A stretch of DNA of 64,000 nucleotides, from assembly GCA_964642015.1 (NCBI GenBank), contig CAZXLF010000001.1:254375-318374 (forward strand), in the 5' to 3' direction. Source of the stretch: an uncultured Planctomycetia bacterium. GTDB taxonomy: Bacteria; Omnitrophota; Gorgyraeia; 2-02-FULL-51-18. The first letter of the stretch is position 1. The number at the start of each line of letters is the position of its first letter. A program made the translations under genes and the position numbers. Shown here one piece after another: positions 7,386-54,087 of the stretch. Below the pieces are notes generated by a model. That model made no database searches. It saw only the letters and a list, made by a program, of their open reading frames with translations, and was not told the DNA's origin.

Positions 7386-8593
7386 AAGTAGCTTATCTTT
7401 TAAACATATTTCCCAAGATATCGGAAACGTTCATTTTGAACGAAATGCTCGAGATCCAATCCAAAGGGATCTCGATCGGCGTTTTTGCTTATCATGATTC
7501 AAAAGAAGAAAAGACCCAGCCGCGCGCGAAAGAGATCAAGGATGTTCAATATTTTTTCAAAGCCAATTTATTTCAGATCATTTACGCGCATTTGTTCTGG
7601 CTTTCGAGGAAACCCGTTTGCTATGTGAGAATGGTGTGGTTCATTTTGAGGCATGGCGACAGGGTCCGCAAACTTTTCCTGGTGCATTTGTATGATACGG
7701 TACGCGTCTATCAGTGGAAACCCGATCATCTGCATGCGTATTTCGGCGAAGCGCTGGGAGATGTGGCTTCTGCCAATTTGGCGATGGTGCTCCATCTTTT
7801 GTCGGGCATTCCTTATACGTTCACGACTTACGCGCATGACATCTTCGACATGCCGGCGACGAATTACCCGATCAAATCCAAATTGGCCGTGAAGCATGTC
7901 ACCGTTTCCGACTACAACAAACGGTATCTCATAGAAAAATTGGGAGTCGATGAAAAAGATATCGAAGTGATCTTTAGCGGCATCGATTTCAGGCATATTA
8001 GCGCTTTTGCCAATAAAAAAATTCCGTCGGCAAAAAAGCCGCTTATCCTTTGCATCGCGAGACTTTCGAAGGAAAAAGGGCTCGATATTTTGGTCAAGGC
8101 CTGCAAACGTCTTGCCGATCAGGGAATGGAGTTTGAATGCATCATCGTCGGCGACGGAGCGGAAAGGGAATATCTAGCGCGTCTGATCAAAGAGAACGGT
8201 CTTTCGGAAAAAGTCATTTTGGCTGGTTATCAGACCCAACCGCAGGTTTTTGAATGGTTGAATCAGGCGACACTGATGGCATTGCCAAGTTATTCGGAGG
8301 GCATTCCTTTATCTTTAATGGAAGCGATGGCGTTCCGCGTTCCGGTGGTTTCAACCCGTATCTGCGGGATCCCTGAACTGATCGAAGACGGCGAAAGCGG
8401 TTTTTTGGTAAAGCCCGGAGATCCTGAAGGTCTGTCTGAAAGAATAAAGCAGCTTTTGTCGGATGAGGCGCTGCGTCAGAAATTCACGGAGACAGGTTAT
8501 AAGAAAGTTTACGAAGATTTTAATCTTAAAACAGTGATGGACAAGCTTTTGAACATCTGGCCGGCCGCCGCAACCGGAGCCAATAGCCGATGA
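7382..8593 (+). CDS. glycosyltransferase family 4
   Basis: 'EGIPLSLMEAMAFRVPVVSTRICGIPELIEDGESGFLV' EX7E motif. Start at ATG 7382 overlaps the galE stop (ATGA). Confidence 0.8.
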   Translation: MKVAYLLNIFPKISETFILNEMLEIQSKGISIGVFAYHDSKEEKTQPRAKEIKDVQYFFKANLFQIIYAHLFWLSRKPVCYVRMVWFILRHGDRVRKLFLVHLYDTVRVYQWKPDHLHAYFGEALGDVASANLAMVLHLLSGIPYTFTTYAHDIFDMPATNYPIKSKLAVKHVTVSDYNKRYLIEKLGVDEKDIEVIFSGIDFRHISAFANKKIPSAKKPLILCIARLSKEKGLDILVKACKRLADQGMEFECIIVGDGAEREYLARLIKENGLSEKVILAGYQTQPQVFEWLNQATLMALPSYSEGIPLSLMEAMAFRVPVVSTRICGIPELIEDGESGFLVKPGDPEGLSERIKQLLSDEALRQKFTETGYKKVYEDFNLKTVMDKLLNIWPAAATGANSR

Positions 8594-10164
8594 GAAAACA
8601 GATCTTGAGCAATCTTTCGAGCAATTATCTGCTGAGTTTTTTCGGCATGATTCTCGGTTTTTTTCTCGTGCCGTTCCTGATCGGGAAATTGGGGAAAGGT
8701 GTTTACGGTATCATTGTTCTCACCGAATCAACGATCGCTTTTTTTGAGATATTGACCGTTAGTGTGCGCATGGCATTGTCGCGCCACGCGACGTTTGCGC
8801 TGTCACAGGACAAACTTGATGAGTTTGCGGAATATCTTTCGACCGGGTTCAGGGTACTGTATTTTTCAGCGGCGCTTGTATTGATATCAGGCGTTACTCT
8901 GAGCTTGAATTTCCCGAATATTTTTAAGGTCCCCGAAGGTTATGTTTTTGAAAGTAAAGTGCATTTTTTGTTGATCGCGCTCGCTTTTACGGCCGCGATA
9001 CCGAATATCATTTACTGGTCGGGTCTTTATGCGAAACAGCGTTTTGATTTGATCAATTTTTCGACGTCATTCGGGCTTATCATGCGCGCGATCTGTATTT
9101 TTCTATATTATTCCCTGGCCCCGAAAAGATACGCGACGCTGATGCCTTATGGGTTCATTTACCTTGTGATGACTCTAACGCAAAATAGCATGATCTATTT
9201 TTGGTTCAAGAAGATCATCCCTGGCATCAAGATCAGCATGCGGCGTTTCAATCCCGCGAAGGTCAGAGAGATCCTTTCTTTCAGCGCACATACGTCGCTT
9301 ACGCGTGCCAGCGGACTCCTTTATGAGAACACCGCGAACATCATCATTAACATTTTGTGGGGACCTTCTTATAACGCGATCTATTCGGTGGCCCTGAAGC
9401 TGCCGAACATGCTGAGAAAGATCTTTGTGGAACCGACTTGGACTTTGACACCGACATTCACGGACCTGGCGGCCAAGCACGACACCAAAAAGATCGAGAA
9501 CATGCTGTACATGTTCTCCAAGTCGCTGGCGATATTCACTTATCCTATCCTTCTGGGTCTGATGACATTATCAAGCTCCATCATTACTTTATGGGTTGGG
9601 CCCGATTTTTTGATGGCCGCTAAATTGCTCCGCATGTATATTGTGCCGCTTTTTGTTTTCATCCCATTCGCACTTTCGGGTTGCATCTTCAACGCTTACG
9701 CAAAGATCAAGGTGCCCAGCTTCGTCAGTTTTGGAATGGCGCTTTCCAATGTGGCCTGCTGCCTTATTTTTGGATATTTATTTTCTTGGAAACTCTACGG
9801 CATTGCGTTGTCAGCTGTCCTGTCGACCGCGGTATCGTCCACGGTTTACCCGTGGTATTGCTGCCGTATCGCCAAACTTTCGTTAAAAAAATATTGGCTG
9901 GGTTCGATCCTGGGCCCTTTAGCGCTGCTTGGTGCGGTGGCAATTGTTAATTTCTCCATTTTCGAATTATTTCATATCCCCTGGAAACTCAATCTTTTTG
10001 TTTTTGCCGAATTCTCTTTAACCGCTTTGGCATATTATGCGCTTGCTTATAAATTCCTTTTGACGCCGCATGAAAAGCGCCACATAGGCGATATACGGCA
10101 GGCGGTCATGGGAAGATTGAATCCCAGAGCGCTTAAACCTTCAGCGGTGGTGGTGGAGCCATGA
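8590..10164 (+). CDS. Wzx-like polysaccharide flippase (MOP superfamily), copy 1
   Basis: 524 aa, ~12-14 predicted hydrophobic helices, N-terminus 'LSNLSSNYLLSFFGMILGFFLVPFLIGKLG' typical of the polysaccharide biosynthesis protein/Wzx family. Paralogous to 26579-28141. Confidence 0.75.
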   Translation: MRKQILSNLSSNYLLSFFGMILGFFLVPFLIGKLGKGVYGIIVLTESTIAFFEILTVSVRMALSRHATFALSQDKLDEFAEYLSTGFRVLYFSAALVLISGVTLSLNFPNIFKVPEGYVFESKVHFLLIALAFTAAIPNIIYWSGLYAKQRFDLINFSTSFGLIMRAICIFLYYSLAPKRYATLMPYGFIYLVMTLTQNSMIYFWFKKIIPGIKISMRRFNPAKVREILSFSAHTSLTRASGLLYENTANIIINILWGPSYNAIYSVALKLPNMLRKIFVEPTWTLTPTFTDLAAKHDTKKIENMLYMFSKSLAIFTYPILLGLMTLSSSIITLWVGPDFLMAAKLLRMYIVPLFVFIPFALSGCIFNAYAKIKVPSFVSFGMALSNVACCLIFGYLFSWKLYGIALSAVLSTAVSSTVYPWYCCRIAKLSLKKYWLGSILGPLALLGAVAIVNFSIFELFHIPWKLNLFVFAEFSLTALAYYALAYKFLLTPHEKRHIGDIRQAVMGRLNPRALKPSAVVVEP

Positions 10165-11156
10165 ATCCGAAGATCAGCGTTGTCATCCCGGTTTACAATG
10201 GCGAACGTTTTATCAAAAGGGCCGTTTGCAGCGTGCTGGGACAGGACTATAAAGCGCATGAGATCATTGTGATCGACGACGGTTCAGCCGATGGAACGTC
10301 CGCGATCTTAGAAGGTTTCAAAGACCGGGTCATCACCAAAAGGATCAAGAATGCCGGCGTTTCGAATGCAAGGAACGAAGGCATAAAACTTTCGACTGGA
10401 GATTATATTGCTTTTCTGGATGCGGATGATATCTGGTTCAGGCGTAAACTTAAGGCGCAAGTCGAGATGATGCAGAAATATCCCGAGATCGGGTTTTTTT
10501 GTTGTAATTATGTTCTGAGAGTTAAATACTTCGGCGATAGGCTGGTCAGGCATTTTTCAGGTCTGAAATATCAGAAGGACCTGAATTTCAACACACCGTC
10601 GGAAAAGCACCCTTTTCAGCTGCTTCTTCATGAACATTTTGTAGGCACTCCCTCAACCGTCGTTGTACGGCGAGATGTGATCGATAAGGTCGGGGGTTTT
10701 GATGTGCGGATCACGCATTGTGAAGATTACGATTTTTGGTTGCGATGCGCGACACAGACGAACTTTATTGTGATATCGGATGTCTTGCTTTATAAGAGAA
10801 AGCACGGACAGAATGCATCCAATGACATGATCCGATTGTACACTGCTTATAAAAAAGTGATCGTGGATACGATCGCCAATCACCGGGATTTTATTCAAGA
10901 GCACGTTTTTTGGCCATCCTGCCGTCGAGCGCTGGCCGAGATTACTTATTACTTAGGCGACCTCCATTTAGAAGCCGGGAAATATTCGGAGGCCTTTTCG
11001 TTGTATTTTAAAGGCTTTTTGGAAAAGAAAACGCCGTCCAATTTCTGTTTTTTTGTATGGCTTTCGTTTAAAAGATCGGTTCGAGCTTTGAAAGGAATGT
11101 TGACCAAAAATTCCTTACCTCAAACTTATCCGCTGAAGAATGGAGCGGTTCAATGA
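10161..11156 (+). CDS. glycosyltransferase family 2
   Basis: 'ISVVIPVYNGERFIKRAVCSVLGQDYKAHEIIVIDDGSADGT...FLDADDIW'. Paralog of 11153-12166 and 25488-26474. Confidence 0.8.
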   Translation: MNPKISVVIPVYNGERFIKRAVCSVLGQDYKAHEIIVIDDGSADGTSAILEGFKDRVITKRIKNAGVSNARNEGIKLSTGDYIAFLDADDIWFRRKLKAQVEMMQKYPEIGFFCCNYVLRVKYFGDRLVRHFSGLKYQKDLNFNTPSEKHPFQLLLHEHFVGTPSTVVVRRDVIDKVGGFDVRITHCEDYDFWLRCATQTNFIVISDVLLYKRKHGQNASNDMIRLYTAYKKVIVDTIANHRDFIQEHVFWPSCRRALAEITYYLGDLHLEAGKYSEAFSLYFKGFLEKKTPSNFCFFVWLSFKRSVRALKGMLTKNSLPQTYPLKNGAVQ

Positions 11157-12166
11157 ACAGCGCTTTGATAGATCCCAAGATCAGCGTGGTGATCCCGGTC
11201 TATAACGGCCAGACCTATATTCGGAAGACACTCGAGAGTGTGTTGGCTCAGGAATATCCAGCTCATGAGGTTATCGTGATCAACGACGGCTCTACGGACG
11301 GGACCCAAAGTGAACTTGATAGATTTGGAAGAAGAATAACCGTAAAGACCACGAGGAACGAAGGAGTTGCAGCCGCCAGAAATACCGGCATCGATCTGGC
11401 GACAGGAGAATATATTGCACTTCTGGATGCGGATGATATATGGTTCAAAATAAAATTAAAAAGTATCGTGGAGGCGATCAAGCGAAATCCTCAGGCAGGA
11501 TTTATTTGTTCTGACTATTTTGTGCGTCATCCTGAATTTGGCAACAAGATGCAGCGTCAATTCTGGATCCAACCCGGCATCGACCATTTTAATTTCGATG
11601 CACCTCTCAAGCGAAATCCTTTTGAAATGCTGCTTTTGTACGGCAATTTCGTCGGCACGCCGTCAGCCGTAGTTTTTAAAAAGGCGATCGCCAAAGAGTT
11701 CGGTTATTTTAAATCGCTCTTCAAGATCGTGGAAGATCTCTATTTTTTTCTTGGAATGGCGATGCGGACGTCTTACTTGATCATTGGCGAGCCGTTGTTC
11801 TACAAAAGAACGCATCATATGAACATGTCGAACGACAAGCTGAACACATACCTTGGTCATCGGGGAGTGCTTCAGTCGATCTTTGTCACCGAGAAGGCTT
11901 ATATAGAACGGCATCATCTGCAGCCGTCTTTCGGTGTGGCTTTGGCGAACATCAATTATGCCATTGGGAATATGTATTATGAATTCGGCGATAGGAACAG
12001 AGCTTTTGAGGCGTATCGTGAAGCACTTCGCAGCAGCGCGACACCAAAGAATATCCTGGATTATCTGTGGATCGTCTCCAAAAAATCGCTCAGGTCCGCG
12101 AGTCATAATAAAATAAGCCGAAGAAACTTTGGGTGGGATCGATTGAAAATGAAGCATAAGGCCTGA
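11153..12166 (+). CDS. glycosyltransferase family 2
   Basis: 'ISVVIPVYNGQTYIRKTLESVLAQEYPAHEVIVINDGSTDGT...LLDADDIW'. Confidence 0.8.
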   Translation: MNSALIDPKISVVIPVYNGQTYIRKTLESVLAQEYPAHEVIVINDGSTDGTQSELDRFGRRITVKTTRNEGVAAARNTGIDLATGEYIALLDADDIWFKIKLKSIVEAIKRNPQAGFICSDYFVRHPEFGNKMQRQFWIQPGIDHFNFDAPLKRNPFEMLLLYGNFVGTPSAVVFKKAIAKEFGYFKSLFKIVEDLYFFLGMAMRTSYLIIGEPLFYKRTHHMNMSNDKLNTYLGHRGVLQSIFVTEKAYIERHHLQPSFGVALANINYAIGNMYYEFGDRNRAFEAYREALRSSATPKNILDYLWIVSKKSLRSASHNKISRRNFGWDRLKMKHKA

Positions 12167-12182
12167 CCCGGAAAAGGTATCC

Positions 12183-13436
12183 ATGAAGAACGAGCGTATC
12201 GAGCTGAAAGAGCTTCGTGTAGAAGGAAATAAGATCATTTATGCTTTTGAGTCGACACTTCCTTTTTTTAAAAAGAAGAGCTTTTTTGTGGAATATGAAA
12301 AGGATATTGCGGCGCCCGAATCTATTGCCGTGATACCATTCGCGGCGGTCATGTCTCCGATCTCGTGGGCCACAGGCGCTGATCTTATATTGCCTTCATT
12401 GGACAGAAAGTATGCCGGATCGCTCGAACACGGGGAACAATATTTCAAACGCTGGCTTGCTCAACGATGGCCTTTCGATGGGAAATTGAAGGCTCCGCTT
12501 GCCGATAATCGTGCCGAAACATCCAAAAGCGGAGTGCTTTTTAGCGGAGGCCTGGATTCTTTAACGACTTATGTCCGCTATAAGAATGAAAGGCCGGACC
12601 TCTTCATCATTTTTGGGGCGGATATCCCGATAATGAATGCGCGCTTCATCCAGCTGTGCAAGGATACTTACAGTAAATTTGCCGAGGAACAGAATGTGCG
12701 CATGAATTGTGTATATACAGATGTGAGACAGACGTATCACGATAAAGACCTTAGAAGATATTCGTTCAACTGGTACGGACAGGTCGCTCACGGAATGATG
12801 CTGACATCGATGGTGGCGCCTCTGGCTTATAAGGACCTAAAGACGCTTTATATCGCCAGTTCTCACACGACGGCTGCCGGCATCCAACCATGGGGCAGCG
12901 ATAAGCCGCTTGATGATGGTATTGCCTGGGTGAATACCGGTGTGATCCACGACAATGAAGACAGGAACAGATTCCAGAAGATCGCTTTTGATCTTAAAGG
13001 TCATCACGACGTTTATAAATACCTGCGCGTATGCTGGTCGCAGTTCCAGGAATTCAATTGCAGTCATTGCGAGAAATGCATGCGGACCATATCGGATCTT
13101 TTGCTGAATGACATCGACCCCAGCCTTTGTAATTTCCGAGTCTCCAAAGGCACTTTCGTCAGGCTCAAAGAGATCTTTTCAAAACGTTACAAGTTTTACG
13201 GTTATTTCCAGGGACGAGAAGGGGTCATGGACTACTGGCGCGAAATGCGCAGATCGATCGACGTCAGCAAGATCAATGATCGGTACGGCTCGAAAGAATT
13301 TTTTGAGTGGTTCCGGCATTTTGATGACATAGACCGCAAGCAAAACAAAGTTTTGGTATTCATCTTTCTTCGGCTGGCGAGACTGAAGCAGCGATTTTTC
13401 AAGAGTCAGAACAGCGGAGTATTGGCAAAGCCATGA
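12183..13436 (+). CDS. PP-loop ATP-pyrophosphatase superfamily protein, possibly an N-acetyl-sugar amidotransferase (WbpG/WbuX-like)
   Basis: PP-loop signature 'SGGLDSLTT' (SGGxDS) and a C-terminal Cys cluster 'CSHCEKC'. Its position inside a glycan locus matches the family of LPS N-acetyl sugar amidotransferases. Confidence 0.5.
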   Translation: MKNERIELKELRVEGNKIIYAFESTLPFFKKKSFFVEYEKDIAAPESIAVIPFAAVMSPISWATGADLILPSLDRKYAGSLEHGEQYFKRWLAQRWPFDGKLKAPLADNRAETSKSGVLFSGGLDSLTTYVRYKNERPDLFIIFGADIPIMNARFIQLCKDTYSKFAEEQNVRMNCVYTDVRQTYHDKDLRRYSFNWYGQVAHGMMLTSMVAPLAYKDLKTLYIASSHTTAAGIQPWGSDKPLDDGIAWVNTGVIHDNEDRNRFQKIAFDLKGHHDVYKYLRVCWSQFQEFNCSHCEKCMRTISDLLLNDIDPSLCNFRVSKGTFVRLKEIFSKRYKFYGYFQGREGVMDYWREMRRSIDVSKINDRYGSKEFFEWFRHFDDIDRKQNKVLVFIFLRLARLKQRFFKSQNSGVLAKP

Positions 13437-14734
13437 ACCAAGAACGGCCTTTATTCATTTTAGCGGGCAACGGGCCTTATGAGAATCGGGGATGCGAGGC
13501 GATTATTCGAGGGACCGTAAACGTGATCCGCCGGCAATATAAGGATCCTCAATTTGTCGTTTGCAGTCAGTTTAAGAATAAAGAAGGCCTCGTCAGGCAG
13601 CAGCGCTCCGAAGAAGATACCGCTATCCGCCATGTACGGATGCGTTTATTACCGTCGGCTCCTGCAGGAATCATCTTTGGCAGTTTTCTGAACAAGGTTT
13701 TATGGAAGATCTATTCCCTGGCGCCTGGGCCAAGGAGAGAATATGTTTATCAGGAGATAGCGCCTTTTATGGATCGTGCCGAAGCTGTTTTATCGGTCGG
13801 CGGCGACAATTATACCTCGGATTATAGTACGATCGGTTATTTCATCGACCTGGACGATTATGCCTTGAGCCGAAAAAAGAAATTGATCATCTGGGGGGCC
13901 TCGATCGGGCCGTTCTCAAAAGACTCCGACCGGGAATCGTCGATGGCAGAACATTTAAAGAAGCAAACGGCGTTATTTGTGCGTGAAAGTGTGTCACTCG
14001 AATACTTATCGACAATAGGTGTCAGGCACAATGTTTTTCGATGTATTGATCCTGCTTTCACGATGACCGCCAAAGAACCCAGGGACGCGTTTCAGTACGG
14101 CGAACTCGCGTCTTCTGTCGGGGTCAACTTAAGTCCGCTGATGTCCAGGTTCGTCTGCGCGGGAGATGATGCTCAATGGCTTGCATTGGCCTCAGATACT
14201 GTGCGGTCTATTTACGAAGCGTCTCATCGCCCGATCCTGCTTATCCCTCATGTATTCGAAGAAGGGAACGATGATCTATCGTTTTTGGATCAGATCTGTA
14301 AGCAGGTAAATTTGCCTGACGTTAAAGTTTTGTCCGGAGATCATGATGCTGCGGAGACTAAATGGTTCATTTCAAATTGTTCCGTTTTTGTGGGTGCCAG
14401 GACTCATTCCGCGATCGCGGCGTATTCAACCAATGTTCCCGCACTGACATTGAGTTACAGCGCGAAGGCAAAAGGTCTTAATGAAGATATTTATGGCGAT
14501 CCAAGTTTTTGTATCCCTGCGTCCGAGTATTCGGCGGATAAAGTGACAACCAAGATTATGGAGTTGATCAACAAGCGGCAGCAGATCTGTGATTCTTTAA
14601 AGGATAAGATCAATAGAATGGTGCATCAAGCCTATGAAAGCGGGCGGACCCTTAAGGAGATCTGTGAAGGACAGATAGAAGACCTTAGTATTCAAGATGC
14701 CGGATCCCGAGTTCATAGTGAGGTTTTATCATGA
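13433..14734 (+). CDS. polysaccharide pyruvyl transferase (WcaK/AmsJ/CsaB family)
   Basis: 'LFILAGNGPYENRGCEAIIRG' and 'VGARTHSAIAAYSTNVPALTLSYSAKAKG' closely match the conserved N- and C-terminal blocks of WcaK-type pyruvyl transferases. Confidence 0.8.
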   Translation: MNQERPLFILAGNGPYENRGCEAIIRGTVNVIRRQYKDPQFVVCSQFKNKEGLVRQQRSEEDTAIRHVRMRLLPSAPAGIIFGSFLNKVLWKIYSLAPGPRREYVYQEIAPFMDRAEAVLSVGGDNYTSDYSTIGYFIDLDDYALSRKKKLIIWGASIGPFSKDSDRESSMAEHLKKQTALFVRESVSLEYLSTIGVRHNVFRCIDPAFTMTAKEPRDAFQYGELASSVGVNLSPLMSRFVCAGDDAQWLALASDTVRSIYEASHRPILLIPHVFEEGNDDLSFLDQICKQVNLPDVKVLSGDHDAAETKWFISNCSVFVGARTHSAIAAYSTNVPALTLSYSAKAKGLNEDIYGDPSFCIPASEYSADKVTTKIMELINKRQQICDSLKDKINRMVHQAYESGRTLKEICEGQIEDLSIQDAGSRVHSEVLS

Positions 14735-15660: not shown

Positions 15661-16196
15661 GAAAAACAGAGCGCATCTTTTCAAGAATGCATTTTAATTT
15701 CTTACGAGCGTTTTGTGGATCGGGCAAAATAAAAACGTCGGGAAAGAATTATCTGTCCTGTGGGAAGGTGTGGATCGCGGGCGGAAGCCAATGGCATCTT
15801 GGTTCGGATAATGTGATCGAACGCGGAGTGGATATTGACTTGTCCGGCGGCAAGCTGATCATGGGATCCCATAATTATTTTAATCAAAACGTGAAGATCG
15901 CATCTTTGGGTGAAGTCAAGATCGGCAATGATTGTCTTCTTGCTGATTCCGTACAGATCTATGATCACAGCCACCGTTTTGATGACAATCAAAAGCTTAT
16001 CCGCGAGCAGGGACATGAAGTGAAGCCTGTGGCGATAGGCGATAACGTTTGGATCGGCGCAAGGTCTATTATCCTTTCGGGTGTTCATATAGGAAGTAAT
16101 TCCGTGATCGGGGCGGGTTCGGTGGTAACCAAAGACATTCCCGCCAATGCCATCGCAGCCGGAGTGCCCGCCAAAGTCATCCGGATGCGGACATAA
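15657..16196 (+). CDS. hexapeptide-repeat (LbH) O-acetyltransferase
   Basis: Left-handed beta-helix hexapeptide repeats '[46 protein letters not shown]'. Confidence 0.8.
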
Positions 16197-16205
16197 GCGA
16201 CCGGT

Positions 16206-17171: not shown

Positions 17172-17172
17172 G

Positions 17173-44205: not shown

Positions 44206-44225
44206 GAACCCAAGAAATTTAGAAC

Positions 44226-47850: not shown

Positions 47851-49030
47851 ATTAGAACTTAAAAACGAGAACATCATTTGCTTTGCCGGTGAAGATTGGT
47901 GGTATCACAATCCGCATTCCAATTTTCACATCATGAAATCCTTCGCCAAAGAGAACCGTGTACTTTTTGTGAATTCGATCGGTGTAAGTGCGCCCAACAT
48001 GAATGATAAGTATGTCTGGAAAAGGATAGGGAATAAGATCAAGAGTCTTGCACGTTATTTAAAAAAAGTCGAAAAAAATATCTATGTGCTTTCGCCGATA
48101 GCCTTGCCTCTTATTAAAGGTCATGAAAAAATAGTCCAGCGGTTCAATAAATTTTTGATTTTGCTTCAAATGAAAGTTATTTTAAAAATAATTCGATTTG
48201 AAAAACCTATTCTTTGGGTATGTGCTCCTTCATTTGCTGATGTTGCCCTGGCTTTAAAAAAACGGGCGAAGTGCTTGATCTATTATTGTGTCGATAACAT
48301 TACTTTTTATAGCGGAGAAATGAATCCATACATTTTGGATCTCGAGATCAAATTGCATTCTAATGCGGATGCCGCTTTGTTTGTCAACCATCGGCTTGTG
48401 GAAGAAAGAAAGAAATTTAACCCTAAAACTTACCATATAGGACATGGAGTGGATTATGACCATTATGCGGTATGCCAAAATGGCCATCTGTCTATACCTT
48501 CTGATATGGAGGAGATAAAGGCTCCGATCGTGGGATATATAGGTGTTATTCGCGGAGTGAACCTTGAGCTGGTAAAGTTTTTGGCGGACAAAAATCAAGA
48601 CGTCTCATTTGTATTCATTGGCGACATTCAACAGGACATTTCAAGTCTTAAAGATATCGGGAATGTCCATTTTTTAGGCCGAAGAGAATACAGGTTATTA
48701 CCGCAATATATGCAAAAAATGTCTTGTTTCGGGATTTTTTATCAGATCAATGATGTATTTAACAATTACAGAAATCCGAAGAAGCTTCTGGAATATTTTG
48801 CATCCGGAAAGCCTATTGTATCAGTTCCGATATTGGAGCTAGAGTATTTTAAAGAACTTGTTTACATCGCTGAGAATTATGAGGCGTTCGACCATTTTAT
48901 AAAAAAAGCATTGTACAACGATAGCCCGGAATTAAGGAAAATGCGCATTCAATTTGCCAAAGAGCATACCTGGGATGTTATTTCGAGCGAGTCCTCACAA
49001 TATATTTTTCAAGCGATAAAGGGGACATGA
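47837..49030 (+). CDS. putative GT-B fold glycosyltransferase (divergent)
   Basis: No strong signature. C-terminal 'YRNPKKLLEYFASGKPIVS' resembles the GT1/GT4 nucleotide-sugar binding helix. Context only. Confidence 0.4.
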   Translation: MQNAELELKNENIICFAGEDWWYHNPHSNFHIMKSFAKENRVLFVNSIGVSAPNMNDKYVWKRIGNKIKSLARYLKKVEKNIYVLSPIALPLIKGHEKIVQRFNKFLILLQMKVILKIIRFEKPILWVCAPSFADVALALKKRAKCLIYYCVDNITFYSGEMNPYILDLEIKLHSNADAALFVNHRLVEERKKFNPKTYHIGHGVDYDHYAVCQNGHLSIPSDMEEIKAPIVGYIGVIRGVNLELVKFLADKNQDVSFVFIGDIQQDISSLKDIGNVHFLGRREYRLLPQYMQKMSCFGIFYQINDVFNNYRNPKKLLEYFASGKPIVSVPILELEYFKELVYIAENYEAFDHFIKKALYNDSPELRKMRIQFAKEHTWDVISSESSQYIFQAIKGT

Positions 49031-49908
49031 TGGAACGGCTGGAGAGCGTCAAGAGTTTTTGGAATTCAAATCCATGTGGGAGTCGGTCATCGGATGACCA
49101 GAACAGATCAAATTATTTCAAGGAGGTCGCTTCTAAGAGATATGACGCAGAATTTCATATTCCTGAAATAGCTAAATTTGAGAATTTTAAGGATCGCGAT
49201 GTTTTAGAAATAGGTTGCGGATTAGGGACTGACGGCCTTCAATTTGCGAAAGCGGGAGCCCGCTATGTAGGCGTGGATCTGACCCCGGCAGCTGTCAGCT
49301 TATCCAAAGAGCATTTCAGTCTTTTTAATATTAACGGAATATTTTTTGAGGTTAATGCTGAAAAGCTGCCTTTTCCAGATAATAATTTTGATCATGTTTA
49401 CAGTTTTGGCGTTATACATCATTCCCCCGATATTGAAGCGATCGTCAGAGAGATATACCGTGTTCTCAAGCCAAACGGGACGTTTTGCATTATGATTTAT
49501 AACAAATCATCTATTAATTATTACCTGGAAATAATGTTCTTTAGAAAGATCTTTAAGCGCCTGCTTTATCCCGCATTTATGCCTTCATTCTTGTCAAAAT
49601 GTTTCGGCTTTAGCAAGGATAAATTGGAAGAACATAGGAAAATTCTGTGGAATGCTAAGAAAATCTCAAAGGAAAAATGGATCAGCATCAATACCGATGG
49701 GCCTAATTGTCCGTTGGCAAGAGTGTACAACAAGGAGGAAGCGTTTGAGCTTTTTAGAAAATTTGAAGACATAAGAAGCGAAGTCCGTTTCTTTGACAAA
49801 TCTCACTGGCCTCTCTTGAGGAACTTGTTGCCAAAATCCGCGGTATCATGGCTCGGAAATCGCTGGGGATGGCACAGAATGGTGTATGGAAAAAAACCTT
49901 CTTATTGA
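49027..49908 (+). CDS. class I SAM-dependent methyltransferase (Methyltransf_11-like)
   Basis: 'DVLEIGCGLGTDGLQFAKAGARYVGVDL' motif I, 'FDHVYSFGVIHH' motif II/III region. Confidence 0.75.
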   Translation: MMERLESVKSFWNSNPCGSRSSDDQNRSNYFKEVASKRYDAEFHIPEIAKFENFKDRDVLEIGCGLGTDGLQFAKAGARYVGVDLTPAAVSLSKEHFSLFNINGIFFEVNAEKLPFPDNNFDHVYSFGVIHHSPDIEAIVREIYRVLKPNGTFCIMIYNKSSINYYLEIMFFRKIFKRLLYPAFMPSFLSKCFGFSKDKLEEHRKILWNAKKISKEKWISINTDGPNCPLARVYNKEEAFELFRKFEDIRSEVRFFDKSHWPLLRNLLPKSAVSWLGNRWGWHRMVYGKKPSY

Positions 49909-51130
49909 TAAAGACTTTAAGGTCGATATAACCGATCAAAGTTATTTACGGCCTATGATCGATTCTTTCTTGGGATGGCTTGATAAAAACGGCTATGCCG
50001 GCTATGACGCGTATGATCTGTGGGCTACGCGATACGGAATTTTTTCAAGGAAGATCTATTACAAGAACAAATTTTTATCCGCGCCTTTTGTTGCGCCGGT
50101 CGTATTGGCGGAGATGCTTTGCCCTGGCTTGAGCCGTTTGTTTTTACGGAGGCACCGCTTTGCGATCGCTGACGCGCATTTTATCTTGGGTTATCTAAAT
50201 CTTTTTTCGGCGACGAAAGAAGAGCGATATCTTAAAGAAGCGACCAAGCTTTCGGATGAATTATTGGGCCAAAGCGTCAGCGGGTATTCCGGCATATGCT
50301 GGGGCTATCCATTTGACTGGCAAAATAACCGCGGGCTCTGGAAAAAGGGAACGCCTTTTGTCACCGTAACGCCTTATGGCATGGAAGCGATGCTTGCGCT
50401 ATATGATGCGACAAAGGATAAAAAATATCTGGATCAAGCGCTTTCAAGCGCACAGTTCATTTTGAAAGATATCCGTGATACCAAAACCTCGGATGACGCG
50501 TCGGCATGCTCTTATTCGCCGCTGGATGAAAGCAAAGTCGTGAACGCGAGCGCTTACCGCGCTTTTGCGCTTACGGAAGCGTTCCATAGATCCCAGCAAA
50601 AAGAATTTCAGGAAAAAGCGCTGAGGAATCTCAATTTTGTGCTTCAAAGTCAAAAACCCGACGGTTCATGGCTTTATGCCGAAGGCAATTCGCAGGATGC
50701 TTTCATAGATAATTTTCATACTTGTTTTGTGCTGAAAAATCTCTGCAAGCTGAACCGGCATCTAAAAAGCGCGGATGTAGAAGGTGCGATCATTAAGGGT
50801 TATGGATATTATAGGAAGCAGCTGTTCGATAAGAGCGGGGAGCCCAAACCTTTTGCTGGAACAAAGAGCGGCCAATTCGTGAGGTATGAGTTGTACGATT
50901 TTGCCGAAGCGATCACATTGGGGACTCTATTAAAAGAAAAAGTATTAGGAGCTTTTGAATTGTCAAAAACGTTAGCAGAAAAGGTGATGAAAAATTACCA
51001 GCTTCGTGACGGACATTTTGTCACGCGTGTTTATAAGTCGGGCACCAAAAACTCCGTACCTTATATCCGCTGGCCTCAAGCGCAGATGTTTTATGCACTG
51101 ACCAGCCTTTTAAAGGAAGTGAGCGGCTGA
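49886..51130 (+). CDS. hypothetical protein, possible alpha/alpha-toroid fold
   Basis: 'QKPDGSWLYAEGNSQDAFIDNFHTCFVL' repeat reminiscent of the 4515 and 24400 proteins, and 'ICWGYPFDWQN'. No confident family assignment. Confidence 0.35.
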   Translation: MEKNLLIDKDFKVDITDQSYLRPMIDSFLGWLDKNGYAGYDAYDLWATRYGIFSRKIYYKNKFLSAPFVAPVVLAEMLCPGLSRLFLRRHRFAIADAHFILGYLNLFSATKEERYLKEATKLSDELLGQSVSGYSGICWGYPFDWQNNRGLWKKGTPFVTVTPYGMEAMLALYDATKDKKYLDQALSSAQFILKDIRDTKTSDDASACSYSPLDESKVVNASAYRAFALTEAFHRSQQKEFQEKALRNLNFVLQSQKPDGSWLYAEGNSQDAFIDNFHTCFVLKNLCKLNRHLKSADVEGAIIKGYGYYRKQLFDKSGEPKPFAGTKSGQFVRYELYDFAEAITLGTLLKEKVLGAFELSKTLAEKVMKNYQLRDGHFVTRVYKSGTKNSVPYIRWPQAQMFYALTSLLKEVSG

Positions 51131-51131
51131 T

Positions 51132-53039
51132 ATGTGCGGCATAGCGGGTGTATTTAATTTCCAAAGTCAAGACACGGTCTCAGAGGAGCTTCTTAAACGG
51201 ATGTGCGACGCGATCAAGCACCGCGGGCCGGATGACGAAGGATTCTTTATCGACCCGGTTTCGCGCGTCGGGTTTGGTCATCGACGGCTCAGCATTATCG
51301 ACCTGTCCGGCGGAAAACAGCCGATGCCGAACGATGCGGAAGATGTCTGGATCGTATTCAACGGTGAGATCTATAATTTTCCGGAACTAAAAAAAGAACT
51401 ATTGGACAAAGGATATGTTTTCAGAAATAGATCCGATACCGAAGTGATCGTGAATCTTTATAAAGAATACGGCGTCGAAGCTTTTGACCGGTTGAATGGC
51501 ATTTTTGCTTTCGCGATCTATGATAAAAAAGATCGCTCAGTGATCCTGGCAAGAGATCGTTTTGGTGTAAAACCGCTTTATTATTGGCTCAATAAAGGGA
51601 AGGTCGTCTTCGCCTCGGAAATGAAGGCAATATTTCAAGATGAGTCTGTCCCGAAAGAGTTGGATACGGAATCGCTGGATAGCTTCCTAACTTTTCGTTA
51701 TAACCCTTCCCCGCAAACGATGTTCAAGGGTGTTAAAAAATTGTACCCGGGACATTATCTGAAGATCGAACTGGACAAAGGATGGGAACTTAAAAGTTTT
51801 ACTCAAGACAGCCCGAGGATCGACGTGCGTATCAGCGAGCAAGATGCTGTCGCGGAATATAGAAGACTTCTCGAAGCGGCGGTCAAGCGTCAAATGATCA
51901 GCGATGTGCCGGTAGGCCTTTTCTTAAGCGGGGGCGTGGACTCGGCGGTGCTTGGAGTGCTGATGCAGAAGCACTATAAGGAAAAAATAAACACGTTCAC
52001 GATCGGCTTTGAAGGGCAGGGTGATTACAACGAGCTGGAAGACGCGAGAGTGTCCGCAAAGCTGATCGGCTCCGATCATCATGAGATGACGCTGTCGCAG
52101 GCGGATTATATGAAATTTTTTTATGAATCATTCACCGTCACGGAGGAACCGATCGCTGAGACGACGATCCCGGCGCTTTACTATGTATCCAAGCTTGCGG
52201 CCAAGCACCTTAAGGTGGTGCTGGCAGGCCAAGGGGCAGATGAGCCGATGGCGGGTTATCACCGGTATCTGGGAGCGCATTTTATAGGGAAGTACGGAAA
52301 TATTTTGAAAGCATTGCCGCTTGGACTTGCGTCAAAATTCATCCCCCGGAATGAGCGCTTCAAAAGAGCTGTCTATGTGAGTCGTTTTTCCGGGGAGCTC
52401 GAAAAGATCCTTGCGATCTATACGATCTTTGATCCCGAACAGAAAAAACTCCTTTATAACGGCCGGGCGCACACGAATGGAAATAATGTTAATGAAACCA
52501 TAACGAACCGGCTGTATGCCGAAGCCAAAGATCTGCCGGATATGCTTTCAAAAATTCTATACATAGATACGCGAATGAGCTTACCGGACGATCTTTTGCT
52601 TTTCAACGACAAGATCACAATGGCCAATTCTCTGGAAATGCGCGTACCTTTTCTGGATATAGAACTTGTAAAATTTCTGGAATCTCTGCCTTCGTCGATG
52701 AAATTGAAGGGCACGCAGCGCAAGTATATCCATAAAAAAGCTGTCGAGGCGTGGCTGCCGAATGAGATCATTTATAGGAAGAAAAGGGGATTTATGACAC
52801 CGATGGATGAATGGCTGCAGAATGATATGGCATTGACGGTAAAAAAGATCGTTAATGATAAAGCATCGGCTTCCAGGAAGTTTTTTGATGTGGGATATAT
52901 CGACAGAATGATCGATCTTCACAGAGCTAGGAAGGAAAATTATCAGCGCCACATTTTCGCGCTTTTGTCATTCGAGCTTTGGTATAAAACTTTTTTTGAA
53001 AATAAAACTTTTGTAGTGCCCCAGCTTATAGGTCAATAA
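51132..53039 (+). CDS. asnB: asparagine synthetase-type glutamine amidotransferase (exosortase/EPS-locus-associated AsnB homolog)
   Basis: N-terminal nucleophile 'MCGIAGVFNF', class-II GATase domain and a PP-loop synthetase domain 'FLSGGVDSAV'. 635 aa. Confidence 0.85.
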   Translation: MCGIAGVFNFQSQDTVSEELLKRMCDAIKHRGPDDEGFFIDPVSRVGFGHRRLSIIDLSGGKQPMPNDAEDVWIVFNGEIYNFPELKKELLDKGYVFRNRSDTEVIVNLYKEYGVEAFDRLNGIFAFAIYDKKDRSVILARDRFGVKPLYYWLNKGKVVFASEMKAIFQDESVPKELDTESLDSFLTFRYNPSPQTMFKGVKKLYPGHYLKIELDKGWELKSFTQDSPRIDVRISEQDAVAEYRRLLEAAVKRQMISDVPVGLFLSGGVDSAVLGVLMQKHYKEKINTFTIGFEGQGDYNELEDARVSAKLIGSDHHEMTLSQADYMKFFYESFTVTEEPIAETTIPALYYVSKLAAKHLKVVLAGQGADEPMAGYHRYLGAHFIGKYGNILKALPLGLASKFIPRNERFKRAVYVSRFSGELEKILAIYTIFDPEQKKLLYNGRAHTNGNNVNETITNRLYAEAKDLPDMLSKILYIDTRMSLPDDLLLFNDKITMANSLEMRVPFLDIELVKFLESLPSSMKLKGTQRKYIHKKAVEAWLPNEIIYRKKRGFMTPMDEWLQNDMALTVKKIVNDKASASRKFFDVGYIDRMIDLHRARKENYQRHIFALLSFELWYKTFFENKTFVVPQLIGQ

Positions 53040-53163
53040 GTTCAATAACTAGTGTCGATATCATCAATAATTAATAAAAATTAATCCTATTTTAATATTT
53101 TTTTAATCATACATTTTATATGATAAGCACGTATTACTTATACGCAAAGATCGTAAAAGTCTG

Positions 53164-53192
53164 TTGCACTTGACCCATTGAATTAGTATAAT
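53164..53192 (+). promoter_or_regulatory. putative sigma70-type promoter (TTGCAC-17-TATAAT)
   Basis: -35 'ttgcac' 53164-53169, 17-nt spacer, perfect -10 'tataat' 53187-53192, inside a 150-bp AT-rich intergenic region after asnB. This implies the downstream gene starts at ATG 53203 rather than 53191. Confidence 0.3.
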
Positions 53193-53202
53193 GCTACCCG
53201 CT

Positions 53203-54087
53203 ATGGAAGCTGTAATGGAAGCCAACAACTTATATCTGGACCACACCGAAAAGAAGAAAAGGGCGCTTATTTTCGGCTCTTTGGTCGATCCCTTGACGAT
53301 GGAAGAGACGCTGCAAAGCGTCGAGCGGATCGTTGACTCCCGCCAGACCGTCCAGCATGTTGTGATCAATGTCGCGAAGCTCGTGTTGATGCAGAAGGAC
53401 GAACATCTCAGGCAGATCGTGAACTCTTGCGGACTTATCAATTGCGACGGGCAGGGCGTGATCATGGGTGCCAAATTTTTGGGCATGCGGATCCCCGAGC
53501 GTGTGACCGGCATCGATCTTTTTTTGAATCTCGTCGAACGTTCCGAGCAGAAGGGCTATAAGCTGTATTTCTTCGGTGCGACAGAGCAAGTTGTTCAAAA
53601 AACGATCCGCGAGCTCCGGTCACAATACCCTGATCTAAAGATCGCCGGTTATCATAATGGTTATTACTCTCGCGAGCAGGAAGCGGAGATCGTTCAGGAC
53701 ATCAAAGCATCCGGTGCCGATATTTTGTTTGTCGCGATGAGCTCGCCTCAGAAAGAAATTTTTTTGAACAAATATATTCATGAAATGAACGTGCCTTTTG
53801 TAATGGGCGTCGGCGGCAGTTTTGATATTGTAGCCGGAGTGACTTTTAGAGCGCCTCTTTGGATGCAGAAAGCAGGGCTTGAATGGTTCCACCGCCTTTT
53901 GAATGAGCCCGCACGTATGTGGAAAAGATATCTTACTTCGAACAGTATCTTTTTGTGGATGCTGATCAAGGCGAAGCTTTTTGGCAAGGAAAGATACGGC
54001 TGTTTCCAGGAAGACCGCCGCCAGAACTGGCAGAGAACAGAGCCGGTTGAGGCCTATTTCACGGGCCAGGCCGCCGAAAATCTTTAG
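53203..54087 (+). CDS. WecB/TagA/CpsF-family glycosyltransferase (GT26), copy 2
   Basis: 'LIFGSLVDPLTMEETLQSVERI...VINVAKLVLM...INCDGQGVIMGAKF...YFFGATEQV' is collinear with 20616-21377. Confidence 0.75.
   Translation: MEAVMEANNLYLDHTEKKKRALIFGSLVDPLTMEETLQSVERIVDSRQTVQHVVINVAKLVLMQKDEHLRQIVNSCGLINCDGQGVIMGAKFLGMRIPERVTGIDLFLNLVERSEQKGYKLYFFGATEQVVQKTIRELRSQYPDLKIAGYHNGYYSREQEAEIVQDIKASGADILFVAMSSPQKEIFLNKYIHEMNVPFVMGVGGSFDIVAGVTFRAPLWMQKAGLEWFHRLLNEPARMWKRYLTSNSIFLWMLIKAKLFGKERYGCFQEDRRQNWQRTEPVEAYFTGQAAENL

Follow-up and report, generated by a model that had tools for sequence, protein, structure and literature searches.

The window, a 64,000-nucleotide stretch of a 510-kb contig from a bacterium whose nearest relatives are Candidatus Omnitrophota MAGs, is probably a compound, Wzx/Wzy-dependent and exosortase-linked exopolysaccharide super-locus, in which two collinear repeat-unit modules lie around one PGT/OPX/PCP set and serve two polymers. 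Its repeats are real but ancient, which makes it a locus of a known kind, though of unusual size, and not the outcome of recent duplication. Pfam and NCBIfam profile matches bear out the gene families and coordinates of a preliminary description: three MOP flippases, two Wzy_C proteins, two GT4+Wzy pairs, three related GT2s, two GT26s, and one PGT, one OPX and one PCP. The 17 transferases (7 GT2, 6 GT4, 1 GT1-like, 2 GT26 and 1 PGT), three flippases and two Wzy exceed the usual need of one repeat unit. By their hydrophobic segments, polytopic membrane proteins are limited to the three flippases, the two Wzy, the PGT and the exosortase. Two complete, collinear gene sets, each with GT26, GT4, Wzx, Wzy and decoration enzymes, occupy module A (6408-23491) and module C (39357-55695). 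Submodule B, with an extra GT2 and Wzx (23600-28141), lies between them, and the sole PGT, OPX and PCP genes of the window (28287-33402) are located exactly between the two modules. Genes described below are on the forward strand and assigned by Pfam, except where stated.

At the left end of the window, a methyltransferase (285-1052), a GT4 (1045-2199), a DegT aminotransferase::GFO oxidoreductase fusion (2196-4505), an alpha/alpha-toroid-like protein (4515-5489) and a GT2 (5494-6411) probably belong to an ABC-transporter-dependent glycan route. Directly before the gene at 285, an upstream Logan contig carries DegT, GT2, ABC2_membrane and ABC_tran+Wzt_C in that order. The single primer/export set proposed in the preliminary description is found within the window; a Wzm/Wzt ABC-transporter route is situated directly upstream of position 1.

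Module A begins with an NAD-dependent epimerase/dehydratase (6408-7385), whose 56-62% identical orthologues likewise precede Wzx in four related loci. It is followed by a GT4 (7352-8593) and by Wzx flippase 1 (8590-10164; Polysacc_synt_3/MurJ/Polysacc_synt), a divergent MOP-family protein of 524 aa with at least nine hydrophobic segments. A tandem pair of GT2s (10161-11156 and 11153-12166; Glycos_transf_2) completes a Wzx-GT2-GT2 order also present in three other loci. The next segment contains a conserved unknown protein (12183-13436; Pfam and gene order in relatives), a polysaccharide pyruvyl transferase (13433-14734), a GT2 (14731-15660), a hexapeptide acyltransferase (15657-16196) and a further GT2 (16206-17171); its gene order is kept in L006/L012, L018 and L030, with orthologues 25-59% identical. 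The GT4 of cassette 1 (17173-18321; Pfam, NCBIfam) represents a distinct GT4 subfamily, its best NCBIfam match, TIGR03088, scoring 153 bits, below the cut-off of 409. Behind it is Wzy_C protein 1, a putative polymerase with ten hydrophobic segments (18335-19723; Wzy_C, E=1.5e-22), whose ORF opens at a TTG at 18239 and whose start is placed by gene callers at 18335 or 18410, judging from the gene calls in L003 and L005. The module ends with a GT2 (19720-20619), GT26/WecG-family transferase 1 (20616-21377) and a BNR/sortilin-like beta-propeller protein (21242-23491), in an order kept in most related loci (orthologues 50-62% identical for the GT26 and 41-57% for the GT2 and BNR protein).

Between paralogs, blastp gives 40.5% identity over 511 aa for Wzx 8590 and 26579 (E=1e-129), 23% over 191 aa for Wzx 8590 and 41872, 42.8% over 381 aa for the GT4s at 17173 and 45374, 25.4% over 378 aa for the Wzy pair and 33% over 248 aa for the GT26 pair; judged from these alignments, homology within the pairs is far beyond chance. 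The three GT2s at 10161, 11153 and 25488, previously called near-identical, share only 41.6-46.8% (41.6% between the first two, 45-47% between the third and either of them). Relative to 25% identity, the line below which independent recruitment rather than cassette duplication had been proposed, the Wzy pair and the third Wzx lie at or below it and the other pairs above. The N-terminal motifs that the copies have in common are characteristic of a family or subfamily: in a 10-sequence alignment of the GT4 subfamily, most positions of ILHVIKTLxLGGAETNL do not vary (L6, H7, I9-L12, L14-E18, N20, L21). In self-blastn of the window, no long DNA repeats connect the copies, and the longest paralog-to-paralog match is 283 nt at 67%.

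In bootstrapped neighbour-joining trees based on simple distances, GT4_17173 is sister to L008 (bootstrap 99), GT4_45374 groups with the GT4s of L047, L050 and L045 (87), Wzx_8590 is sister to the L008 Wzx (100), Wzx_26579 to L035 (96) and Wzy_46513 to L050 (100). Wzy_18239 falls among Wzys of other genomes and at a great distance from Wzy_46513, a placement that lacks strong support. For GT4_17173, at least 119 database clusters, at 46-63% identity, are nearer relatives than the partner GT4 in the window. A recent cassette duplication, now diverging, had been suggested, and the recurrence of gene families and local order (GT4 then Wzy, Wzx beside GT2) inside one locus would agree with it. With most paralogs closest to a protein of another genome, with protein identities of only 23-47%, DNA similarity reduced to short motif-level matches and a composition that differs between the two modules, such an origin is very improbable and is rejected. 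Judged by these comparisons, the paralogs are old, and each one with a found orthologue (both GT4s, all three Wzx, both Wzy and GT26_20616) belongs to an orthologue group that is single in other genomes. The branching of the GT2 trio is not resolved, so these GT2s may reflect an old duplication within this lineage.

The gene order of related loci, compared across 45 genome loci (mostly from Candidatus Omnitrophota MAGs) and additional metagenome loci, places both modules in a common framework. The usual state in the 45 is one locus, most with a single Wzx and a single Wzy no more than ~10 kb away from the GT4, arranged as PGT-Wza-Wzc-(AcT)-Wzx-GT2s-(AcT)-GT4-Wzy and continuing as (GT1-like)-GT2-(BNR)-GT26-(exosortase-EpsI). 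Wzy follows GT4 in 25 of the 39 informative loci, the orthologues of Wzy 1 being 31-45% identical. Module A corresponds to the L006/L010/L012/L023 type and the segment from PGT to module C to the L022/L031/L033 type, and the gene order of each module is that of orthologous loci present in single copy in other genomes. On these comparisons, GT4 followed by Wzy and Wzx followed by two GT2s are conserved units shuffled between genomes.

The metagenomic origin of the contig and the differing GC of module C raise the question of an assembly artefact, that is, a collapsed or chimeric join of the loci of two strains. Logan assemblies of four independent runs (SRR12313477 to SRR12313480) are 99.9-100% identical to the window over their overlaps, which for the DNA-level comparison lie outside the 37.6-53 kb stretch. 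One Logan contig, reported at 42.9 kb, matches in its retrieved pieces from 5.3 kb upstream to 11052 and over 14173-21321; a Wzx_26579 variant is listed on a 42.9-kb Logan contig, and the ORF of the Wzx::sulfotransferase fusion in module C is recorded in both Logan and NCBI sources. Given also that no repeats able to mislead an assembler are found, the likelihood of an artefactual join is close to negligible. Assembly duplication is ruled out over the overlaps by self-blastn and the Logan agreement.

Submodule B consists of a PhyH-like dioxygenase (23600-24403), a prenyltransferase-like toroid protein (24400-25491), a GT2 (25488-26474) and Wzx flippase 2 (26579-28141), and has no polymerase of its own. 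The L035 sister of this flippase is the only Wzx in the retrieved stretch of its locus. The adjoining initiation and export set comprises the polyprenyl-phosphate glycosylphosphotransferase (PGT, Bac_transf, 28287-29696; Pfam, NCBIfam), a GT4 (29677-30954), a short OPX of 209 aa (Poly_export/SLBB, 31107-31736) and a Wzz-domain PCP (31738-33402). The NCBIfam evidence for this set is a TIGR03025 match of 461 bits, above the cut-off of 295.55. Orthologues in related loci are 40-68% (PGT), 41-54% (OPX) and 35-41% (PCP) identical. The names Wza and Wzc given earlier are right as to family, but the former is the short OPX and the latter carries a degenerate kinase domain that lacks the Walker A lysine; with both features, the export machinery may need further partners.

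Just past the PCP stop, a strong hairpin with a 13-bp stem (33475-33504) likely marks a transcription-unit boundary between convergent genes. Two reverse-strand genes (34190-38679) interrupt the canonical Wzc-to-acetyltransferase junction and encode secreted proteins of 613 and 840 aa, with N-termini that by eye resemble signal peptides and no Pfam or NCBIfam matches; homologues at 33-34% occur in three EPS loci, and the gene of the 840-aa protein contains 330-nt tandem repeats of 78% identity. The AT-rich intergenic region that follows (38680-39351) probably acts as the control region for module C. It includes a 28-nt imperfect inverted repeat (38916-39001) and a small ORF (39109-39351) that weakly resembles ribbon-helix-helix/CopG-like proteins (CopG_antitoxin, 24.8 bits, below the cut-off of 28). 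The separation of module C from the PGT/OPX/PCP genes by these elements is compatible with modules that function independently, in which module A or C would draw on a set located in another part of the genome or one of the two would be silent cargo, the single shared set being an effect of viewing one window. In Synechocystis, the gene for the synechan OPX is indeed found outside the xss cluster (PMC8205485). Here, ~69 kb of the 510-kb contig is covered, and further PGT, OPX or PCP genes may exist elsewhere on it, which counts against two polymers sharing one set, as does the Wzm/Wzt route upstream. Independence is nevertheless rather improbable: in relatives, PGT/Wza/Wzc directly adjoin one end of either module type, and the window has one set exactly between the two, no second copy occurs in the window or the 5 kb upstream, and the module genes examined contain no internal stop codons.

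Module C begins with a hexapeptide acyltransferase (39357-39884), whose 53-60% orthologues lie directly 3' of Wzc in six loci. An APS kinase (39737-40405), a CysQ-type bisphosphate nucleotidase (40366-41178), a methyltransferase-like protein (41194-41865) and Wzx flippase 3 follow; the APS kinase-CysQ-Wzx block recurs in L055 at 67%, 56% and 57% identity, respectively. Flippase 3 is fused to a C-terminal sulfotransferase (777 aa, 41872-44205; Polysacc_synt_3 E=1e-100, Sulfotransfer_1 E=4e-20) and matches the NCBIfam MOP flippase model at 323.6 bits, above the cut-off of 273. The sulfotransferase domain is absent from its best 119 Wzx homologues, all of ~437-526 aa, and the best 150 representatives of the domain are nearly all stand-alone proteins of ~290-300 aa. 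Further downstream are a GT4 (44226-45377), the GT4 of cassette 2 (45374-46513) and Wzy_C protein 2, a putative polymerase with ten hydrophobic segments and 36% identity to the L057 Wzy (46513-47850; Wzy_C, E=2e-18). A GT1-like protein (47837-49030) comes next; its orthologues, 43-52% identical, lie behind GT4/Wzy in about twelve loci (for example L019, L022, L027, L029, L032, L033, L050 and L051) and in L057. It is succeeded by a methyltransferase (49027-49908), a toroid-like protein (49886-51130), an asparagine-synthase-type amidotransferase (51132-53039; TIGR03108, 520 bits, below the cut-off of 817) and GT26/WecG-family transferase 2 (53191/53203-54087), whose best orthologue in related loci is 36% identical, with no close one. 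An exosortase (54125-54973) and EpsI (54970-55695) close the module, which at this end has an NCBIfam TIGR02602 match of 159 bits, above the cut-off of 105.55; the GT26-exosortase-EpsI order is shared with L022. Beyond the module, a PEP-CTERM protein (57127-57873), recognized directly from its C-terminus (NPEP, a hydrophobic stretch and QQRK), precedes a UDP-GlcNAc 2-epimerase (57965-59125; Epimerase_2, E=2e-121). The latter enzyme would be the source of UDP-ManNAc, the type of donor that GT26 enzymes usually use.

The most likely products, as read from the gene content, are two differently decorated anionic polymers with common initiation and export. The single PGT would make one Und-PP-sugar primer, which each GT26 would commit to a different repeat unit. 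One unit would be pyruvylated and acetylated; the other would be sulfated, with PAPS from the APS kinase and PAP cleared by CysQ, and possibly methylated. Each would be flipped by its own Wzx and polymerized by its own Wzy, and both polymers would exit via the common PCP/OPX. The earlier suggestion that the locus makes two or three different polymers or repeat units in parallel and exports them by one common route fits everything found, its product side being deduced from genes. The third Wzx has no polymerase partner, which counts against this scheme.

Pfam Wzy_C covers WaaL-type ligases as well as polymerases, so one of the two Wzy could be a ligase. All transferases could then build one complex product, either a block polymer or one repeat unit that is large or branched, with a WaaL-like Wzy_C attaching the glycan to lipid or PEP-CTERM proteins and the extra flippases, including the unpartnered one, moving side-chain or modification donors. 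The exosortase and PEP-CTERM protein adjoining module C agree with this, as does the link between EPS loci and PEP-CTERM protein sorting (Haft et al. 2006, PMC1569441), and four relatives (L028, L038, L052 and L057) have a second, distant Wzy_C gene beside PGT. However, both Wzy_C genes of the window occupy the conserved GT4-Wzy slot, which in most single-module relatives is the home of the sole Wzy_C, and that protein must be a polymerase there provided that a PCP/OPX pathway is at work. Neither protein matches the exosortase-associated O-ligase model of NCBIfam at E<=0.001, and the GT26, Wzx and Wzy of each module form a complete set. One complex product is unlikely, and two polymers remain the preferred reading.

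The centre of module C is compositionally foreign, with a GC3 of 0.40-0.48 over 39737-49908 versus 0.54-0.65 in the PGT/Wza/Wzc and GT26/exosortase flanks, and in this respect it resembles the serotype-specific centre of capsule and O-antigen loci. For two polymers with shared steps, Agrobacterium tumefaciens provides the precedent: it makes two unipolar polysaccharides through pathways that overlap and that include two Wzx and two Wzy, each of the latter acting specifically on one polymer (bioRxiv 10.1101/2021.04.22.440995).

Polysaccharide genes run almost without a break along the plus strand from 285 to about 55.7 kb (open reading frame listing with Pfam and NCBIfam scans), and all features below lie on this strand unless otherwise indicated. 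The genes form a module of pyruvyl- and acyltransferase type (module A, 6408-23491), a short submodule B (23600-28141) and a module of sulfation type (module C, 39357-55695). Every gene named in the preliminary description is present at the position and in the family given there. Two Wzx flippases, at 8590-10164 and 26579-28141, score 37.9 and 37.2 bits against Pfam Polysacc_synt_3 (cut-off 23), each with at least nine hydrophobic segments. The third, at 41872-44205, is a single 777-aa open reading frame that joins a Wzx (Polysacc_synt_3, E=1e-100; NF007773, 323.6 bits, cut-off 273) to a sulfotransferase. In both modules a GT4 gene is directly followed by a putative polymerase: GT4 17173-18321 by the Wzy_C protein at 18239/18335-19723, and GT4 45374-46513 by that at 46513-47850. 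The Wzy_C scores are 80.5 and 66.9 bits (cut-off 31.7), with ten hydrophobic segments in each protein; the domain is found in polymerases and WaaL-type ligases alike. In a simple hydropathy scan of the window, no further polytopic membrane protein fits a third polymerase. Pfam also identifies a trio of GT2s starting at 10161, 11153 and 25488 and two WecG/TagA-family GT26s starting at 20616 and 53191, within a window total of seven GT2, six GT4, one GT1-like, two GT26 and one phosphoglycosyl transferase.

The initiation and export genes are single. The phosphoglycosyl transferase (PGT, 28287-29696) carries Bac_transf (E=2e-74) and CoA_binding_3 domains and scores 461 bits with TIGR03025 (cut-off 295.55). 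It is followed by the export protein OPX ("Wza", 31107-31736; Poly_export and SLBB) and by PCP ("Wzc", 31738-33402, 554 aa; Wzz domain 31.7 bits, cut-off 25.5). By these curated-model scores, the window holds the initiating PGT, MOP flippase, PCP and OPX of a Wzx/Wzy pathway. In the kinase-like C-terminal domain of PCP the Walker A lysine is missing (NPADDSAT) and Walker B is degenerate; PCP also lacks a tyrosine cluster at its C-terminus, and every NCBIfam tyrosine-kinase model stays below its cut-off. Tyrosine phosphorylation may be dispensable for the export machinery. OPX has only 209 aa, like the short EpsY and PEP-CTERM-type export proteins, and may depend on a partner in the outer membrane.

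A different export route adjoins the left end. On L053, a contig from the Logan assemblies of public runs that reaches upstream of the window, positions 1185-5555 encode DegT, GT2, Wzm (ABC2_membrane) and Wzt (ABC_tran and Wzt_C), and the last part of the Wzt gene overlaps the first gene of the window, a methyltransferase (285). Because the Wzm/Wzt genes abut and overlap this gene, the genes at 285-6411 probably belong to an ABC-transporter-dependent glycan pathway, and the super-locus in the wider sense then has more than one export route. The single primer and export set described earlier thus holds for the window, with its one PGT, OPX and PCP, but not for the region immediately upstream. 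That the modules work independently, with genes from outside the window, is quite improbable. Within this left end, 2196-4505 is a single 769-aa open reading frame in which a DegT/DnrJ-type sugar aminotransferase is fused to a GFO/IDH/MocA oxidoreductase, a fusion that would unite two consecutive amino-sugar synthesis steps in one polypeptide. Weak alpha/alpha-toroid matches (squalene-hopene cyclase C-terminal, prenyltransferase, pectate lyase or GlcNAc 2-epimerase) occur in one protein per block, at 4515-5489, 24400-25491 and 49886-51130. As a fourth set of paralogs these three were rejected, having no significant mutual similarity (blastp; hhalign probability at most 1.2%).

The repeated genes are homologous but far apart. 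In an all-against-all blastp of the window proteins, Wzx 8590 and 26579 share 40.5% identity over 511 aa, Wzx 8590 and 41872 share 23% over 191 aa, the GT4s 17173 and 45374 share 42.8% over 381 aa, Wzy 18239 and 46513 share 25.4% over 378 aa, and GT26 20616 and 53191 share 33% over 248 aa. A further pair absent from the preliminary description, the acetyltransferases 15657 and 39357, shares 33% over 184 aa. On these alignments the homology of the pairs is certain. The GT2 trio, earlier called near-identical, is only 41.6-46.8% identical over about 310-324 aa. The N-terminal motifs shared by the copies are real, but they are family signatures; that of the GT4s varies little among ten aligned sequences of the subfamily. 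The longest DNA match between paralogs is 283 nt at 67% identity. Logan assemblies from four separate runs (SRR12313477 to SRR12313480) are 99.9-100% identical to the window wherever they overlap it, which excludes assembly duplication as far as the overlaps extend. The pieces retrieved from one Logan contig, reported as 42.9 kb, extend from 5.3 kb ahead of the window's start to 11052, and also cover 14173-21321; a variant of Wzx 26579 is recorded on a 42.9-kb Logan contig.

The closest relatives of the copies lie in other genomes. A cluster-level search of 5.8 billion proteins with GT4 17173 returns at least 119 clusters at 46-63% identity, the query excluded, all nearer to it than its in-window partner 45374; in a second database search, 22 clusters (46-53%) are nearer to GT2 10161 than the in-window copy 25488. 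Bootstrapped, distance-based neighbour-joining trees were built from the related GTDB loci, numbered with the prefix L. Both window GT4s fall inside one subfamily, split from other GT4s at bootstrap 96, where 17173 pairs with L008 (99) and 45374 with L047/L050/L045 (87). Wzx 8590 likewise pairs with L008 (100) and Wzx 26579 with L035 (96), and Wzx 41872 belongs to another clade, together with L024, L027, L031 and L033. Wzy 46513 pairs with L050 (100), and Wzy 18239 is placed among sequences of L006, L018, L035 and L046. GT26 20616 sits among orthologues at 50-62% identity; no close orthologue of GT26 53191 was found in the related loci, the best being 36%. The tree of the GT2 trio is star-like with low support. 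By its divergence the trio is old and recent duplication is excluded for it; an old duplication within the lineage is possible. The earlier suggestion of a recently duplicated, diverging locus is accordingly not borne out, given the low DNA identity and the grouping of the GT4s, Wzx 8590, Wzx 26579 and Wzy 46513 with other genomes at bootstraps of 87-100. Recent segmental or tandem duplication was rejected as an explanation, the copies sharing little DNA identity and, where the trees place them with support, not being mutual closest relatives.

Scanned with the alignment of this GT4 subfamily, the GTDB species genomes yield 45 loci. Most are in Candidatus Omnitrophota MAGs; the others are in records labelled uncultured Planctomycetales or Planctomycetia and in a few Eisenbacteria, Elusimicrobia and Betaproteobacteria. 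The highest identity is 61%, the source genome itself lying outside the scanned representatives. When all open reading frames of the related loci are compared by blast with the window proteins, a recurring single-copy order emerges: PGT, Wza, Wzc, (39357-type acetyltransferase), Wzx, GT2(s), (15657-type acetyltransferase), GT4, Wzy, (47837-type GT1-like), 19720-type GT2, (BNR), GT26, (exosortase, EpsI). The PGT is at the opposite end in L010, L023, L028, L038 and L052. A Wzy-like gene directly follows the GT4 in 25 of the 39 informative loci, and the order Wzx-GT2-GT2 also occurs in L042, L056 and L057. The BNR/sortilin-like beta-propeller protein (21242-23491 in the window), of 700-750 aa with one N-terminal hydrophobic segment, is kept at 38-46% identity in most related loci, beside the GT26 or Wzy gene.

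Module A is collinear with loci of the L006/L012/L010/L023 type, and 28287-55695 with those of the L022/L031/L033 type, apart from inserts consisting of a reverse-strand gene pair (34190-38679) and the sulfation block. The window is therefore two head-to-tail variants of one phylum-typical locus, with the single PGT/OPX/PCP set exactly at the module junction and an extra GT2 and Wzx pair (25488-28141) just ahead of it. The picture of duplicated cassettes is replaced by that of a standard Omnitrophota-like exopolysaccharide (EPS) locus, present in two diverged versions around one initiation and export set. A multi-copy state is not unique to this genome, since among the 45 loci two Wzx-like genes occur in L008 and two Wzy-like genes in L017, L028, L038 and L052. 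In L057 (13885-20532), a 17173-type GT4, a BNR protein, a 46513-type Wzy, a 47837-type GT1-like protein and a stand-alone sulfotransferase occur together. L055 (8697-11419) has the APS kinase-CysQ-Wzx block of the window at 67%, 56% and 57% identity, and two Wzx genes adjoining an exosortase. Judged from these combinations, the building blocks are reshuffled between genomes.

Base composition sets the centre of module C apart. GC3 is 0.40-0.48 in the genes between 39737 and 49908, 0.50-0.58 in most of module A, and 0.54-0.65 in the PGT/Wza/Wzc, GT26 53191, exosortase, WecB and cytochrome oxidase genes. With its low GC3 between flanks of higher GC3, this centre looks like a segment more recently acquired or exchanged between conserved flanks. 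The region heading module C (38680-39351) is AT-rich and contains a 28-nt imperfect inverted repeat (38916-38943/38974-39001) and a small open reading frame (39109-39351) whose similarity to CopG/ribbon-helix-helix proteins is weak (24.8 bits, under the cut-off of 28); the region may serve as the module's own regulator and operator. Just behind the PCP gene lies a strong hairpin (33475-33504). Separate regulation of module C is plausible from these features. Promoter and terminator counts from 21 to 40 kb are not above those of shuffled sequence, and the hairpin alone is kept as a lead. Invertible-promoter repeats flanking module C were also considered; only the intergenic 28-nt imperfect palindrome and no recombinase were seen, leaving phase variation unsupported. 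The reverse-strand genes (34190-36031 and 36157-38679, both minus) encode putative secreted proteins with no family match, and break the conserved junction between Wzc and acetyltransferase. The second gene, for a protein of 840 aa, includes tandem repeats of 330 nt (78% identity), in which 37 nt recur exactly at 37600 and 37930; the protein has homologues at 33-34% in the betaproteobacterial-type EPS loci L029, L039 and L051.

In the fused flippase of module C, the Sulfotransfer_1 domain occupies residues 485-690 at the C-terminal end (E=4e-20), and its part of the gene has a GC content of 35%, against 43% in the Wzx part. Genes for PAPS supply (APS_kinase, E=2e-53) and PAP removal (CysQ-type Inositol_P, E=5e-49) are in the locus; with the sulfotransferase, they complete the predicted gene set for PAPS-dependent synthesis of a sulfated polysaccharide. 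The architecture is absent among the 119 best Wzx homologues and among the 150 best sulfotransferase-domain representatives, nearly all of which are stand-alone, with one GT2::sulfotransferase fusion; it thus appears rare. In L055, the closest Wzx relative is followed by a gene of 209 aa; the idea that this is a split-off sulfotransferase was rejected (no similarity, E=0.6). Two Omnitrophota relatives encode Wzx::pyruvyl transferase fusions (L040, 6224-9013; L023, 4080-6737), so that a flippase fused to an enzyme of anionic decoration may be a recurring device.

It is reasonably probable, from gene content, that the two modules make two differently decorated polymers with shared initiation and export. 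The single PGT would prime undecaprenyl phosphate. One initiating transferase can serve two pathways, as WecA does for O antigen and ECA, and WbpL in Pseudomonas. GT26 enzymes typically add the second sugar to a primer linked to lipid-PP (TagA, WecG, GumM), which makes the two window GT26s natural branch points; the UDP-GlcNAc 2-epimerase at 57965 is a candidate for supplying a typical GT26 donor. The unit of module A would receive a pyruvyl ketal (13433) and be acylated (15657). That of module C would be sulfated, and possibly methylated and acylated as well; the sulfotransferase fused to Wzx would draw on PAPS from the APS kinase (39737), and PAP would be cleared by CysQ (40366). Each unit would then be flipped by its own cognate Wzx and polymerised by its own cognate Wzy, both polymers leaving through the common PCP/OPX. 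The main rival has a single complex product, and one Wzy_C protein would be a ligase whose acceptors may be PEP-CTERM proteins. The Wzy_C domain allows such a role and a PEP-CTERM protein lies near the locus; set beside the two complete blocks of flippase, transferases and Wzy_C protein, this rival is unlikely. An extension of the two-polymer reading is tentative: one primer-export set would serve at least two distinct anionic polymers, and Wzx fused to the last cytoplasmic decoration enzyme would flip correctly decorated units only. If true, the fusion is a built-in quality gate against cross-talk of parallel pathways on a common lipid carrier, and such fusions are a possible means to enforce substrate specificity. 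The locus also offers a testable example of how uncultured bacteria could vary surface chemistry, pyruvylated versus sulfated, by stacking Wzx/GT/Wzy blocks.

The locus ends with an exosortase (54125-54973; PF09721, E=1.4e-55; TIGR02602, 159.2 bits, cut-off 105.55) and EpsI (54970-55695). At 57127-57873, 1.4 kb downstream of these genes, a 248-aa protein has a probable N-terminal signal peptide (by eye) and the tail VNPEPVSSLLFALGGLVLAAGIFMQQRKAVAVR, read directly as a PEP motif, a hydrophobic helix and a basic cluster; it is likely an exosortase substrate. The exosortase-subtype cut-offs are missed (XrtA 165.7 versus 208; XrtV 168.9 versus 313), as are those of XrtA-associated families (TIGR03088 153 and 120 versus 409; TIGR03108 520.6 versus 816.9; TIGR03027, an export protein, 124 versus 180). 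With scores under these cut-offs, the proteins are relatives of these families and not members, and the locus is not an XrtA system in the strict sense.

In capsule and O-antigen loci, conserved export genes surround a low-GC, serotype-specific Wzx/Wzy/GT centre. The window likewise has conserved flanks (PGT/OPX/PCP and GT26/exosortase) around a compositionally distinct Wzx/Wzy/GT centre, and its cassettes occur in new combinations, such as the 17173-type GT4 with a 46513-type Wzy in L057. Serotype loci normally have one variable centre, whereas the window has two different centres side by side. No new category arises, pathway sharing of initiation and export parts and mosaic low-GC modules being established ideas.

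The logic proposed for the two polymers has an experimental precedent in Agrobacterium tumefaciens, where, in the available part of the source, two Wzx and two Wzy are described, each Wzy being specific for one of two adhesive polysaccharides, and the title speaks of "overlapping pathways" for the dual unipolar polysaccharides (bioRxiv 10.1101/2021.04.22.440995). There, as far as that part goes, the duplicated genes apparently occupy separate loci and came to light through genetics; the window is one contiguous locus known from sequence, its shared genes lying at the junction. The synechan (xss) cluster of Synechocystis PCC 6803 is also Wzx/Wzy-dependent, with a sulfotransferase, many GTs and a PCP (PMC8205485), but its sulfotransferases XssA and XssE are separate proteins, whereas that of the window is fused to a flippase, and the window locus itself encodes APS kinase and CysQ. 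The synechan paper states that sulfated EPS was unreported in other bacteria (PMC8205485); later papers, in the parts available, describe sulfated capsules in Vibrio and Cobetia.

The locus belongs to the Wzx/Wzy-dependent, exosortase-associated EPS class (PMC1569441). As in the PEP-CTERM/exosortase (EpsH) loci of Haft et al. 2006 (PMC1569441), exosortase and EpsI end a large EPS cluster, whose other genes include those for a PGT, a short OPX, a PCP, an asparagine-synthase-type amidotransferase and GT4s that score best with the XrtA-associated TIGR03088; a PEP-CTERM protein adjoins it. The floc-formation clusters of Zoogloea and Aquincola, as far as the available part of PMC9850573 describes them, are likewise among the closest known systems. 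Unlike the PEP-CTERM/exosortase loci, the window is from an Omnitrophota-like lineage, not Proteobacteria, and has two repeat-unit modules and three flippases. In conclusion, the locus is ordinary in kind: large and compound, it belongs to a known class and is built of ancient exchangeable modules.
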